Assembly (NCBI GenBank): GCA_964016885.1
Contig: OZ024745.1
Coordinates: 116,870,001-116,934,000, forward strand
Source of the DNA: Eledone cirrhosa
Lineage: Eukaryota
Reading direction: 5' to 3'
Length of the DNA stretch: 64,000 nucleotides
A program made the position numbers and the translations under genes. Positions 32,503-58,840 of the stretch are shown in pieces. Positions within the stretch are counted from its first letter, which is position 1. The number at the start of each line of letters is the position of its first letter. The notes under the pieces are model-generated. The model was not told where the DNA came from. It worked only from the letters and a program-made list of their open reading frames with translations, and made no database searches.

Positions 32503-33113
32503 GATCATAGATAATAATTATTATATAGAAACTATGTAATATGATGGTGCAGCTTGATGATGTCCGTCTTCCTCATACCAGTGATTTCTGTGGGTCAGTG
32601 ATTGGTATACCAGGAGGTAGAGACATAGTTGGAAGAAGGTGCATGATTTAGCTCATCTCTGAGCAGCAATCTTCGGGTGTCTAAGGTCAGGTGTAGGTGT
32701 ATGGTGTACGTTTGCATGGGGTTAAGGCCAGCTTTGATTTAATCTGAATGCATTTAAATTCAGAGTATGGCTTTCAGAATACAGATTCATACATACTACA
32801 TAGACACGCTGACACACACACACTTACAAACACACACATACGCACACACACATATCTATATGTATACGTGTGTGTGTGTGTGTATATATATATATATATA
32901 TATATATATATATATATATATATATATATATATATATATATATATAAAAGAAAATTTCGCTCTACATGGCTGAATACAATAAATGTAATCTGAGTTTTTC
33001 GAATATTAATAATAACATTCGATTCGTTTGCAATTATGCAAACAAGCCTCAGTGTTAAAGCCATGTCAGTAGAATGAACCCTTCATTCTTGCTCTTCTGT
33101 TGGTATGCGAAAG

Positions 33114-33163
33114 GAACTGCAGACACTAATGTTTCTGAGTATCACCCTTCATCAGTACAGCTC
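33114..33163 (-). ncRNA. Minimal type I hammerhead ribozyme
   Basis: GAGCUGUA-CUGAUGA-A-GGGU(GAU)ACUC-A-GAAA-CAUUAGUG-UC-UGCAGUUC. Stem I is 8 bp and the cleavage triplet is GUC. Confidence 0.85.
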
Positions 33164-33441
33164 ACTGTTCACCTGCCAAACTCTCAGAGCTAGTGAAAAT
33201 ATATGCTATTTTCAAAAATAAACAGTGACTAATCGGCCTGATTTGCATATTAGCAGACGGGCTGATCAGTCAGATCTGCATATTAGCAGATCCACTGATC
33301 AGCCAGATTTGCATATCAGCAGACTGGCCAGTCAGTTTCCTGTATACGAGCGATAAATGGCCGGCTTTGCCAAATTCAAATAAAAAAGAAAATTTCGCTG
33401 TACATGGCTGAATACAATAAATGTAATCTCAGGTGAACAGT

Positions 33442-33491
33442 GAGCTGTACTGATGAAGGGTGACACCCAGAAACATTAGTGTCTGCAGTTC
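33442..33491 (+). ncRNA. Minimal type I hammerhead ribozyme
   Basis: GAGCUGUA-CUGAUGA-A-GGGU(GAC)ACCC-A-GAAA-CAUUAGUG-UC-UGCAGUUC. Predicted cleavage after C33483. Confidence 0.88.
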
Positions 33492-33719
33492 CTTTCGCAT
33501 ACCAACAGAAGAGCAAGAATGAAGGGTTCATTCTACTGATATGGCTATAAAATTGAGGCTTGTTTGCATAATTGCAAACGAATCGAATGTTATTATTAAT
33601 ATTCGAAAAACTCAGATTATATATATATATATATATATATATATATATATATATATATATATATATATATATATATATATATATATATATATATATATAT
33701 ATATATATATATATATATA

Positions 33720-33915
33720 AGGGCAGTGGATTGGCAGTATCGGTAGAGGGTCGGAGGCCATGCTTTGACGCATTGAGTTTACGGCCCTTGCCATTCTGAG
33801 TTCAAATCCCGCCGTGGTTACCTTTGCCTTTCATCCTTACGAGGTCGATAAAATAAAGTACCAGTAATGCACTGGGTAATTGCTGGCCTTGTGCCAAAAG
33901 TAGAAACAATTATTC
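33720..33915 (+). mobile_element. SINE family A (Meta-domain-like)
   Basis: ggcagtggattggcagtatcggtagag head, gagttcaaatcc B-box, tttgcctttcatccttacgaggtcgataaaataaagtaccagt core. Confidence 0.9.
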
Positions 33916-33967
33916 TTAACTCCCAAGCTGAGAATCATTCGGCTTCCTAAATAGAATATTAGATGTG

Positions 33968-56287: not shown

Positions 56288-57133
56288 TTAAGTTAGCCAT
56301 GTCAGCTCATTTCTCTCAGCCCGGTTGTTAAGTGGGGGTCTGAGGTTCTTAATAACAAGTGCTTCCTTTATCCTTAAGGATCCGATGCTGCGTTCAGTCG
56401 CTAGGACTGTGACCAAGGGTCTACCCTGTGGGTTTCCGCATTTGAGGATATGTTTACGGAAGGAAGATGCGTTGGTGTTGATATGTTCCTTGATACGAAC
56501 ATGTAGGGGTCGGATGGTGCTACCTATGTAAAACTTATTACATTTATCGCATTGAATCTTATATACGACATAGGTGCGTAGGCAATCTGCCCCCCGTATC
56601 GGGCAGTTGCTGAGGGAACACGTCCCATCTGCCTCGTAGGGTTTGTTGGAGAGGCATCTTCGCAGCGAAGGTCCTGTGTGGGCCAAATGTATGTCAAGTC
56701 CCTCCGTACGTATGGCCCTGCGGATGGCGTTCGTGGTATATTCACTCAGGTGGGGGATTTTAAAGAAGCACCTGCTAATATTAAGTTTTCTAGTGGGTGT
56801 CAGTCTACTGGGTCTGGGGTCTCTAATTCCGTTAATCAGTCGCTTGGGATAACCATTAGACCTGAGTAGATTACGGAATTGCGTGGTATGGGTGAGACCA
56901 CCCATCGGGTCGCTGCATCTGTTAGTGATCCGTGTCAGTTCATTTAGGACATAGCCTCTCTTAGCGTTGTTGGGGAGGGCTGAGTTATAATGCACAAATA
57001 AGTCCTTGCACGCTGCTTTGCGGTAGAAAGTGGTGTTTATGTCTCCTTCTTCCGAGATGTTGATACGGAAGTCGAGGAGGGCGAGTGACCCGTCTTCTCC
57101 CGGGTGTTCGATGGTGAAATCGATGTGTTGGTC
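56288..57133 (-). CDS. PLE polyprotein C-terminal part (RT thumb + GIY-YIG endonuclease), 5'-truncated, left arm
   Basis: HIDFTIE..LALLDF.I...TTFYRK....FVHYNSALP..NGYP..C..C..C..VVYKIQCDKC..FYIGSTIRPL.VRIKEH..IKEAL.I...P.LN. The frame is uninterrupted. Confidence 0.88.
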   Translation of the reverse strand, partial: DQHIDFTIEHPGEDGSLALLDFRINISEEGDINTTFYRKAACKDLFVHYNSALPNNAKRGYVLNELTRITNRCSDPMGGLTHTTQFRNLLRSNGYPKRLINGIRDPRPSRLTPTRKLNISRCFFKIPHLSEYTTNAIRRAIRTEGLDIHLAHTGPSLRRCLSNKPYEADGTCSLSNCPIRGADCLRTYVVYKIQCDKCNKFYIGSTIRPLHVRIKEHINTNASSFRKHILKCGNPQGRPLVTVLATERSIGSLRIKEALVIKNLRPPLNNRAERNELTWLT

Positions 57134-57141
57134 AGTATCGT

Positions 57142-57987
57142 GACCAACACATCGATTTCACCATCGAACACCCGGGAGAAGACGGGTCACTCGCCCTCCT
57201 CGACTTCCGTATCAACATCTCGGAAGAAGGAGACATAAACACCACTTTCTACCGCAAAGCAGCGTGCAAGGACTTATTTGTGCATTATAACTCAGCCCTC
57301 CCCAACAACGCTAAGAGAGGCTATGTCCTAAATGAACTGACACGGATCACTAACAGATGCAGCGACCCGATGGGTGGTCTCACCCATACCACGCAATTCC
57401 GTAATCTACTCAGGTCTAATGGTTATCCCAAGCGACTGATTAACGGAATTAGAGACCCCAGACCCAGTAGACTGACACCCACTAGAAAACTTAATATTAG
57501 CAGGTGCTTCTTTAAAATCCCCCACCTGAGTGAATATACCACGAACGCCATCCGCAGGGCCATACGTACGGAGGGACTTGACATACATTTGGCCCACACA
57601 GGACCTTCGCTGCGAAGATGCCTCTCCAACAAACCCTACGAGGCAGATGGGACGTGTTCCCTCAGCAACTGCCCGATACGGGGGGCAGATTGCCTACGCA
57701 CCTATGTCGTATATAAGATTCAATGCGATAAATGTAACAAGTTTTACATAGGTAGCACCATCCGACCCCTACATGTTCGTATCAAGGAACATATCAACAC
57801 CAACGCATCTTCCTTCCGTAAACATATCCTCAAATGCGGAAACCCACAGGGTAGACCCTTGGTCACAGTCCTAGCGACTGAACGCAGCATCGGATCCTTA
57901 AGGATAAAGGAAGCACTTGTTATTAAGAACCTCAGACCCCCACTTAACAACCGGGCTGAGAGAAATGAGCTGACATGGCTAACTTAA
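57142..57987 (+). CDS. PLE polyprotein C-terminal part (RT thumb + GIY-YIG endonuclease), 5'-truncated, right arm
   Basis: Mirror copy of 56288-57133. The translation is identical in the ORF track. Confidence 0.88.
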   Translation, partial: DQHIDFTIEHPGEDGSLALLDFRINISEEGDINTTFYRKAACKDLFVHYNSALPNNAKRGYVLNELTRITNRCSDPMGGLTHTTQFRNLLRSNGYPKRLINGIRDPRPSRLTPTRKLNISRCFFKIPHLSEYTTNAIRRAIRTEGLDIHLAHTGPSLRRCLSNKPYEADGTCSLSNCPIRGADCLRTYVVYKIQCDKCNKFYIGSTIRPLHVRIKEHINTNASSFRKHILKCGNPQGRPLVTVLATERSIGSLRIKEALVIKNLRPPLNNRAERNELTWLT

Positions 57988-58596
57988 CCATAATGACCAT
58001 TCACAGCCTACGGCCTGCTATCTTCACACACACGCACGTATATGCATACCCATACGCATGCACACACACTTCTATATTTTTTACACGCACACATGTTTTT
58101 ACAACCTACCACCTTTCACACCCTTTGGTTTCCAGCTTCTACAGCCCACTATCTTTCACACACAAACGCACTCACACATATACATACACAGTTACACACA
58201 CACATGTATACCCATACGCTTACACACACACACATCTATATTTATACACGCACACATATTTTACAACCTACCACCTTTCACACCCTTTGATTTCCAACTT
58301 CCACAGCCCACTATCTTTCACACACACACACACTCACACATATACACACTTACACTTATACACACACAGTCACACACACATATATATTTACATACACATA
58401 TCTTACGACTTTCACACGCTAACGCACCCTCTTGATTTAACCCATTTGGTCAGTGGCTTTTGCCACAGCTTATCACGCGCACGCGCATTCTCTCCCTCGT
58501 TTAAATTTTAAATATTTTCTCCCCATAACGGCATTCCTGTCTTAACGACATCACTACTTTCTCCGCTTGGCCTGTTTTTCCCCCCTTTTGGAACTT

Positions 58597-58635
58597 TTTC
58601 CCCCGTTGATGGGCGTGAGCCCGAAATATTGGGAT
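58597..58635 (+). ncRNA. Variant minimal hammerhead-like motif (mirror copy at about 55641-55678, minus)
   Basis: UCCC-CCGUUGA-U-GGGC(GUGA)GCCC-GAAA-UAU-U-GGGA. The core deviates from CUGANGA. Confidence 0.45.
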
Positions 58636-58840
58636 TAAAATCTCTACTACGGTAACCCTTCTACCTTTGTTTTGTTTTCATCTTTGTCTCTCTCAACTTT
58701 CACTTTCACCTGTTTTTCCTATCTATATTTCACTTCCTACCTCGAGATTTCCCTTTGCATTGTTGTGGCTTTCTTAAATACGTATTTTTATATATATATA
58801 TATATATATATATATATACTGTGTGGGTGGTGTGGGTACA

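Follow-up and report, generated by a model that had tools for sequence, protein, structure and literature searches.

Head-to-head insertions with a one-sided tail have already been published for Penelope-like elements (PLEs); what is said of cited papers here refers to the passages used. Craig et al. 2021 (PMC8557442) described an inverted, 5'-truncated copy of endonuclease-bearing (EN+) PLEs with a one-sided tail of 30–40 bp and a bias towards (TA)n, and Arkhipova et al. 2013 (PMC3846280) reported the same layout, proposing self-priming for the inversion and recording small RNAs from rotifer Penelopes; (TA)n targets are known for Hydra, Neptune and Naiad PLEs (PMC8557442, PMC3846280). GxKF/DKG motifs of the reverse transcriptase (RT) and CCHH endonuclease residues are named in PMC8557442, where RWK and DKT in the RT, a CxCX5C linker and the lack of CCHH are features of the Hydra clade. 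In vitro, the lizard PLE Poseidon PAc uses two adjacent internal RT start sites that bound the tail, and, as a predicted dimer, cuts and extends both DNA strands of an AT-rich target (Frangieh et al. 2024, PMC11167929). Minimal type I hammerhead ribozymes occur in PLE terminal repeats, with opposite-strand pairs 100–700 bp apart (Cervera and De la Pena 2014, PMC4209133), and animal non-LTR (long terminal repeat) retrozymes (PMC7229834) have been interpreted as non-autonomous PLE derivatives (bioRxiv 10.64898/2026.07.22.740005). Here we examine five such insertions in one 64,000-nt stretch, the window (G000:C5:116870001-116934000), taken from a 3.0-Gb assembly.

The insertions are head-to-head, 5'-truncated copies of PLEs and of a PLE-type retrozyme in (TA)n, and their arms end at two fixed sites. 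Letters A–E, with D2, designate element families, and L-numbers other copies elsewhere in the same genome. Self-comparison of the window revealed inverted arms at all five places, far above chance, with identities of 184/190 (A), 77/78 (B), 76/79 (C), 60/60 (D) and 1647/1650 (E). The hammerhead-bearing ends point outward, and A, C, D and E are each flanked directly by (TA)n on both sides. The preliminary description of this stretch had reported five fold-back insertions between (TA)n runs, which held for these four and not for B, which runs into D2; its assignment to PLEs was borne out by the RT and GIY-YIG domains of E and the Hydra-type motifs of B and C. The architecture also recurs across the genome, as that description had expected: exact motif matches number 1918 for A and 1994 for C, and among the first 100 C matches neighbours within 5 kb faced outward in 14 cases, inward in two and in tandem in three. 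Its mechanism, the snap-back of one strand, we replace by priming at two sites from two target strands, a reading to which we assign a probability of roughly 0.6.

Two fixed ends, one tail and asymmetric arms

Copies elsewhere were mostly the first listed matches on contigs C1–C4, and tallies were partly made by hand. For A, 90 of the first 100 listed matches were used, of which five were dropped as second members of the same insertion, leaving 85; C end sites were taken from 50 loci picked by a motif upstream of both ends; the E sets (140 and 916 matches) were anchored on one end type by design, the partner end being free. Junctions were scored against family majority bases, not the window copy.

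Arm ends clustered at two places. In C, 19 of 50 lay at −2..+1 and 29 at +73..+76, with two elsewhere and 19 TA dinucleotides available in the last 200 nt. Among the 90 A loci, 48 ends fell at 0..13 and 31 at 28..46, six read through into the next unit and five lay between, while E arms ended at 3451–3452 (tailed) or 3408–3413 (tail-less) in 20 other loci and in the window. The proposed (TA)n targeting was supported. Both end types overlap (TA)n by 1–4 nt, and both lie at element-encoded TA(T), so that they apparently represent the same kind of joint. Within each family the short arm ends at one set position, corresponding to the proximal RT start site of the pair already described (PMC11167929). 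The earlier statement that the mirror arms end at particular TA dinucleotides was correct for A, C, D and E; the idea that these were chance TAs was not, the site being fixed (48/50 C ends at two sites).

Two-armed insertions combine one end of each type. By hand tally, 134 of 139 resolved two-armed insertions from four families carried one tailed and one tail-less arm (A 42/44, E 52/54, C 17/17 and D 23/23 sampled), the window's D being the fifth exception. Among the 85 A loci, 60 had an inverted partner: 42 were heterotypic, two homotypic (L287 and L330) and one a segmental duplicate (L328), and 15 remained unassigned. Both exceptional E insertions were short/short (L171/172 and L450); this tally omits single-armed and complex loci (L207, L213, L216, L227, L230, L427, L436, L440, L441, L446, L447 and L456). 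L227, considered as a tail/tail insertion, proved heterotypic by eye. The C pairs came from the 50 loci above, two of them inferred from adjacent matches.

The two arms differ in length in both directions. In A, the tail-less arm extended beyond its partner at the 5' end in 26 of 42 insertions (the tailed arm did so in 14, and two were equal); in E the count was 23 of 52 (tailed arm 18, within 2 nt 11), and in the window's C the tail-less arm extends 12 nt further than its partner. Neither arm, then, is always the template for the other. A fold-back copy cannot exceed the 5' extent of its template, so snap-back from the tailed strand cannot yield longer tail-less arms, and the opposite single route, with the tail-less strand as template, fails on the remaining insertions.

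These data bear directly on the mechanism first proposed, in which one TA-primed cDNA with a complete end snaps back and is resolved wherever an internal TA meets (TA)n. Short arms do end in TA, and the geometry is allowed in the window's E (starts 1760/1767), in 18/52 E and in 14/42 A insertions. However, the short end is a fixed site, as the two C positions among 19 available TAs illustrate; in roughly half of the insertions (26/42 A, 23/52 E and the window's C) some 5' sequence is present on the short arm and missing from the complete one; single tail-less arms exist (L032, L038, L041 and L043); and the B tail-less site overlaps (TA)n by only one T. As the sole route this mechanism is largely refuted, and we regard it as very improbable. 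Nor are near-perfect hairpins the routine product once supposed: they are a minority outcome, as most joints are asymmetric; in 13 of 20 long E pairs the two starts are separated by over 100 nt.

Shared lineage, coupled lengths and the joining of the arms

Arms of one insertion share a lineage. In 11 young E insertions the two arms shared 33 non-majority variants and differed at 10 sites over 13,740 nt (0.07%, vs 0.52% between insertions); 12 of the shared variants were private, and many others mark sub-lineages found in other insertions. Sub-lineage marks stood on both arms in all four insertions carrying them in the shared stretch (L031, L046, L048 and the window), and L037 had one discordant site between its arms. 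For older families, arm divergence compared with divergence between insertions was 4.2% vs 5.9% (C) and 6.0% vs 7.4% (A); these arms have drifted, so that the term near-perfect fits mainly young copies.

The same figures bear on whether the hairpins arose from fold-back reads or polishing as assembly or library artefacts. Over 1463 nt the two arms of the window's E are 100% identical, the turns are known here from the assembly alone, and no record spanning the E turn was found in three contig sets and one run of restriction-site-associated DNA sequencing, samples that may lack this young insertion. Artefacts would not, however, be expected to give one tailed and one tail-less end, asymmetric joints that differ from locus to locus, a divergence between arms that rises with the age of the family (0.07%, 4.2%, 6.0%), later insertions of a short interspersed element (SINE)-like repeat in one arm only (e.g. 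L264, L281 and L323) or one junction common to two duplicated loci (L327/L328), and we consider this origin barely conceivable.

Arm lengths are coupled. Starts no more than 10 nt apart occurred in four of 20 long E pairs against 0.25 expected (permutation, P 2e-5), and in eight of 38 non-hotspot E pairs against 0.84 expected. The microhomology proposed at the turn was supported in A, where 25 of 60 joints overlap by at least 2 nt (17.7% expected by permutation, P 1e-5) and 28 contain filler. Several E joints are loop-less palindromes (L031, L430, L214 and L460). If two separate RNAs from one source locus were each copied from one target end, the fixed ends, the asymmetry and the shared lineage would follow, and the B–D2 chimera described below, together with arm pairs in which one arm crosses and the other starts at the ribozyme cut, suggests that more than one RNA is possible. 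Arms stopping together at non-hotspot positions (the eight of 38 above) and a strict one-of-each use of start sites are not predicted by such a history, which we judge quite improbable.

Turn points are linked to the hammerhead region in A, C and D, as had been noted; the simplest reading is that RNA 5' ends would fall in this region. Among A arm starts, the commonest is the base that directly follows the predicted cut (6 of 145 starts, vs 47 across the surrounding 81 positions; P 2.5e-5, or 2e-3 corrected for 81 positions); three of the six come from the first 30 loci, where the peak was noticed, and three from the next 60. Another 11 starts lie within 8 nt downstream of the cut and three within 8 nt upstream; L286 and L380 have a common junction and different flanks. 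This pile-up hints at ribozyme cleavage in vivo. In E, 19 of 104 starts lie at 3147–3158 (eight of them at 3150 itself), some 70 nt upstream of the hammerhead-like motif and just downstream of an AT-rich run; position 3150 may be the transcript start. In C, 13 starts at −105..−86 mark the front edge of the hammerhead (stem I start −102), with no clear pile-up at the predicted cut in the 50 loci (one arm exact, three more within 4 nt). Most turns in D and D2 lie just upstream of the stem II 3' strand.

Together, these observations are probably best accounted for by both target ends priming on one RNA, one at each site, with the cDNAs joined by microhomology. The GIY-YIG domains of a PLE dimer would nick both strands of the (TA)n; one TA end would pair over 1–4 nt with the distal start site and give rise to the tailed arm, and the other would pair with the proximal site and give rise to the tail-less arm. 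Each cDNA would run until fall-off or the RNA 5' end, whether transcript start, ribozyme cut or break, and the trailing enzyme would need to displace the leading cDNA. PLE RTs are not known to carry RNase H. The cDNA 3' ends would then anneal over 2–4 nt, or join with filler, and be copied across, yielding a near-perfect hairpin only if both cDNAs stopped at about the same place.

A closely related history also begins with two fixed-site primings, only one cDNA being extended on the RNA; this strand, tailed or tail-less, then folds back to template the second arm, which is thus copied from DNA and becomes linked to the remaining primed end. Such fold-back explains the shared variants, the excess of near-symmetric turns and the microhomology, covers both directions of asymmetry if both routes are allowed, and has a precedent in the self-priming proposed for PLE inverted junctions (PMC3846280). 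On the other hand, two routes would have to operate at similar rates, and one of them requires an additional template switch to a cDNA that holds just the tail; loops are mostly long (13/20 long E pairs, as above) and some joints loop-less; and shorter arms also begin at RNA-end hotspots (E 3150 in L445; the A cut in L261, L262 and L378). In the last three loci the start of the shorter arm coincides with the predicted cut or lies no more than 3 nt from it, and the longer arm crosses the cut, which suggests that the shorter arm was also copied from RNA. Zero-loop joints are more easily understood as two ends annealing than as a fold-back, which is limited sterically. The loop-less joints and the short arms at RNA-end hotspots thus lean towards both arms being copied from RNA, the shared variants and the coupling fit both accounts, and we regard fold-back after two primings as unlikely but serious.

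Several points weigh against two primings on one RNA. Copying of the shorter arm from the longer one as DNA would give shared variants and coupled lengths just as readily, most of the data can be accommodated by two snap-back routes acting in a mixture, and lineage marks would also be common to two RNAs derived from a single active source locus. Five insertions are homotypic (L287, L330, L171/172, L450 and the window's D), and many copies are single-armed (10/20 E loci). The one-of-each rule is not explained by the in vitro system, since the two strands did not differ in start site there (PMC11167929). Five of the six arms at the exact A cut are the longer arm, so that the models are not discriminated there. 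The counts also carry the sampling described above: tallies made partly by hand, 15/60 A junctions unassigned, loci mostly first listed on C1–C4 and E sets anchored on one end type.

The insertions and their families

Positions of the arms, their (TA)n targets and their motifs are collected in Table 1. Hammerheads were called by motif reading and family comparison because a strict CUGANGA...CGAAA pattern recovered none of the five motifs in the window and an Rfam scan of the window gave no hammerhead family at E ≤ 1, only chance microRNA-like matches on the hairpins. The outward direction reported earlier was confirmed; two complete hammerhead motifs were present only in A, those of C and D being partial, the B core mutated and E lacking G8-A9. 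A complete 3' end on one arm, likewise reported for every insertion, is absent from D and from B, whose (TA)n-side arm is tail-less.

Table 1. Arms, (TA)n runs and motifs of the five insertions (window positions).
Feature	Position	Strand	Basis
(TA)n target left of A	32883..32946	.	repeat runs
A tailed arm: 40-nt tail (32946-32985), a single non-coding unit of 438 nt and 6 nt belonging to the unit before it	32946..33429	-	
Complete type I hammerhead motif, A minus arm	33114..33163	-	coordinates mirrored from plus copy
A tail-less arm, starting 12 nt upstream of hammerhead stem I	33430..33619	+	
Complete type I hammerhead motif, A plus arm, with cleavage predicted after 33483	33442..33491	+	sequence and family tally
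(TA)n target right of A	33618..33719	.	repeat runs
Degenerate (TA)n left of B	40616..40861	.	repeat runs
B (Hydra-like PLE) tail-less arm: GIY-YIG end (open reading frame, ORF, 41521-41922), 3' untranslated region, hammerhead ~40912-40958	40862..41925	-	
SINE-like insert within B arm	~41138-41320		
B plus arm, cut off: CxCX5C-bearing linker, 78 nt encoding part of the endonuclease	41925..42250	+	
D2, another PLE family: 5'-truncated tail-less 3' end	42249..42852	+	
(TA)n runs around C	43693-43736 and 43981-44010		
C tail-less arm, starting inside hammerhead core	43735..43825	-	
C tailed arm: 3' half of hammerhead and 76-nt tail (43905-43980)	43826..43980	+	
(TA)n runs around D	47825-47852 and 47981-48031		
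D tail-less arm, only 3' half of hammerhead	47849..47909	-	
D second arm, stopping 6 nt beyond tail-less site	47917..47982	+	
(TA)n runs around E	55414-55447 and 58789-58818		
E tailed arm (element positions 1760-3451): RT C-terminus and GIY-YIG, 38-39-nt tail at ~55448-55485	55448..57140	-	
E tail-less arm (element positions 1767-3413)	57141..58790	+	
E hotspot of arm 5' ends (element ~3150), putative RNA start; mirror copy 55738	58525..58537	+	
E hammerhead-like motif without G8-A9; mirror copy near 55643-55671	58597..58634	+	

Family A reads as a PLE-type, retrozyme-like element: its unit is 438 nt long and non-coding, shows tandem read-through at several loci and has a full type I hammerhead core, in which the 10.1–11.1 position can be read as A-A or as two bulges. 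The window copy had been described as folding back at the hammerhead; its arms in fact start 255 nt apart, with a 254-nt spacer between, and its turn lies away from the predicted cut. Tailed arms halting at the upstream unit's start site, as in the window's A, were not seen in other A copies. The A unit also carries, at 33232-33328, three 33-nt repeats with the octamer ATTTGCAT, which we take to be a motif of the small nuclear RNA promoter type and which could drive retrozyme transcription. A SINE-like repeat of ~185 nt, with window copies at 32312-32497, 33726-33914 and 41138-41320, recurs within the A arms of many loci at nearly one AT-rich spot, ~10–28 nt before the tail-less end.

Family E is, from its domains and motifs, an EN+ PLE. 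The near-full copy L045 has an 870-aa frame matching RVT_1 (E 2e-11) and GIY-YIG (E 3e-4), and its translation contains GPKF, DKG, CxxC and a downstream His, in agreement with the GxKF/DKG and CCHH-type features; in the window fragment the RT C-terminus and GIY-YIG (E 1e-4) are encoded on both arms. Partial tandems of the pLTR (pseudo-LTR) type occur in L033, L034, L036 and L045. The hammerhead-like motif retains stem II and GAAA, has lost G8-A9 in nearly all tallied copies and is read as a degenerate remnant. The family is young (copies ~99% alike) yet defective in this core, so E moves without an intact hammerhead core. At the E 5' hotspot of L215 (G000:C1:86065956-86068985), the element's first 7 nt are repeated several times among short TA runs, resembling repeated abortive joins.

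The (TA)n target and hammerhead of the Hydra clade are found in B, C and D2, with variant cores: U3-A8 in B and D2, mostly U4C in C. The window's C had been taken as intrinsically non-coding; the C 3' end belongs instead to a coding Hydra-like PLE, as an ORF between both C arms of L461 encodes an RT with RWK and DKT (C being the only one of B, C and D2 checked for these motifs). This ORF is tied to the C 3' end by position, and the C frame breaks before the CxCX5C linker. The window's C hammerhead is partial, one arm lacking the stem I 5' strand and C3 and the other the whole 5' core.

In B the linker carries CxCX5C and the endonuclease lacks CCHH, its GIY-YIG-type end being recognized by reading, with no Pfam match; the hammerhead has a U3-A8 core, mutated in the window copy. 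D2 (L403) likewise combines a CxCX5C linker with an endonuclease lacking CCHH, and the window's D2 has a long-stem-II hammerhead, with the U3-A8 core at 42758 and GAAA at 42811, and ends in (TA)n at 42851-42936. The mirror arm of B spans 78 nt before a switch to D2 at 42249. This joint has a 2-nt overlap, and a single (TA)n-to-(TA)n stretch contains the B arm on the left and the D2 end on the right, both tail-less. Other top matches to the B–D2 stretch start at ~42249 or further downstream, none carrying the B part, and the chimera could have formed when synthesis changed template from one family to the other, or through a later insertion accompanied by a deletion. In D2 loci L402-L420 the turn hotspot, which lies shortly before the hammerhead GAAA, follows a branch-point-like CTAAT and an AG within the large loop of stem II; it might mark either a transcript start or a 3' splice site.

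Family D was two-armed in 23 of 30 loci, all 23 heterotypic by eye. The window's longer D arm ends after 6 nt of a family tail of ~77 nt, making this a rare insertion without any full tail, and its hammerhead has neither the 5' core nor either of the 5' strands. The 3' module of D also occurs in the PLE family D2; no PLE frame was found upstream of three longer D copies. Tails of ~77 nt in D (loci L113-L132) and 76 nt in C are about double the reported 30–40 bp, and that of B exceeds 80 nt (loci L143-L164).

Elsewhere in the window, a 452-nt element at 62363-62814, outside pure (TA)n, has ~170-nt terminal inverted repeats and a central spacer and resembles a miniature inverted-repeat transposable element (MITE), a hairpin of another type than the five insertions. 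Further PLE fragments lie at 61928-62254 (+), an RT piece with a DKT motif, and at 49056-49502 (−), a GIY-YIG domain (Pfam E 9e-5); an open frame at 6123-6797 (−) resembles a mariner/Tc1 transposase by eye. An origin of the five insertions as MITEs or foldback DNA transposons was rejected, as their ends are asymmetric by tail, their turns vary by locus and fixed symmetric terminal inverted repeats are absent.

Implications and comparison with known systems

Thousands of such inverted pairs, with arm identities of 94–100%, occur in the genome and would form long duplexes if transcribed through. A role of the hairpins as double-stranded RNA (dsRNA), in ADAR editing or as a source of small interfering RNA (siRNA), suggested in the preliminary description, is a possibility. 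Retrotransposed E copies showed no A>G excess (private A>G 7, T>C 10), a count uninformative on the editing of hairpin transcripts. Neither siRNA from Penelope inverted repeats nor a published two-primer, one-RNA model for PLEs was found in the literature searched, most subscription journals and supplements lying outside its coverage.

A broader proposal, which we hold tentatively and at slightly under even odds, is that every two-armed insertion is one RNA copied twice by a PLE dimer, once per start site and strand, so that the turns form a genome-wide record of RNA 5' ends: transcript starts at position 3150 in E and at the hammerhead front edge in C, and the cut in A. If true, the A turns would be genomic evidence of a metazoan PLE-type hammerhead cleaving in vivo and of cleaved RNA being mobilised, and the by-product would be inverted repeats in their thousands, a potential supply for dsRNA pathways. 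The accumulation of A arm starts at the predicted cut bears in any case on whether these hammerheads work in vivo. PMC8557442 names as an open question how PLEs come to insert in tandem and inverted form, and the passages used of PMC11167929 leave it so; the one-tail rule, two-way asymmetry, shared lineage and coupled lengths make this question directly testable with the existing in vitro system.

Two primings on one RNA resemble, in their use of two target strands, one RNA and a microhomology join, a process known from another retrotransposon. In L1 twin priming, as reportedly set out by Ostertag and Kazazian in 2001, both target strands prime on one RNA and a microhomology join gives a 5' inversion. 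The L1 cDNAs are said to cover non-overlapping parts of the RNA, whereas the PLE arms here cover the same sequence, so that two primings would require displacement synthesis on undegraded RNA. A twin-primed insertion of the L1 type was itself rejected: its inverted and direct parts should not overlap, and the arms here overlap over the whole shared 3' part in all families.

Like published EN+ PLEs (PMC8557442, PMC3846280), the insertions show a head-to-head copy, partial tandems, a tail at one end and junction palindromes. Published work credits the tail to endonuclease resolution (PMC8557442) and the inversion to self-priming (PMC3846280); the one-tail rule, arm asymmetry and length coupling are counted here, and the passages used of both papers contain no such counts. 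Tails of 76 nt (C), ~77 nt (D) and >80 nt (B) also depart from the published 30–40 bp. As for PAc, ribozyme cleavage is not needed, E being young and mobile with a defective core (PMC11167929). That study saw no strand difference in start site and detected no RNA-seq reads ending at the ribozyme cut, whereas family A arms pile up at the predicted cut; the passages used propose no account of inversion. The hammerheads share with those of PMC4209133 the U3-A8 core (B and D2), an extra nucleotide after A9 and a palindromic loop 3, and differ in a stem II closed by a loop of ~40 nt or more (D and D2) and in the family-wide loss of G8-A9 in E. Family A, finally, resembles animal non-LTR retrozymes (bioRxiv 10.64898/2026.07.22.740005) in its non-coding 438-nt tandem unit with a type I hammerhead; beyond what the passages used report for these, its dispersed copies in (TA)n carry the PLE signature of two arms with a single tail, a direct pointer to PLE enzymes as the agents of their mobilisation.

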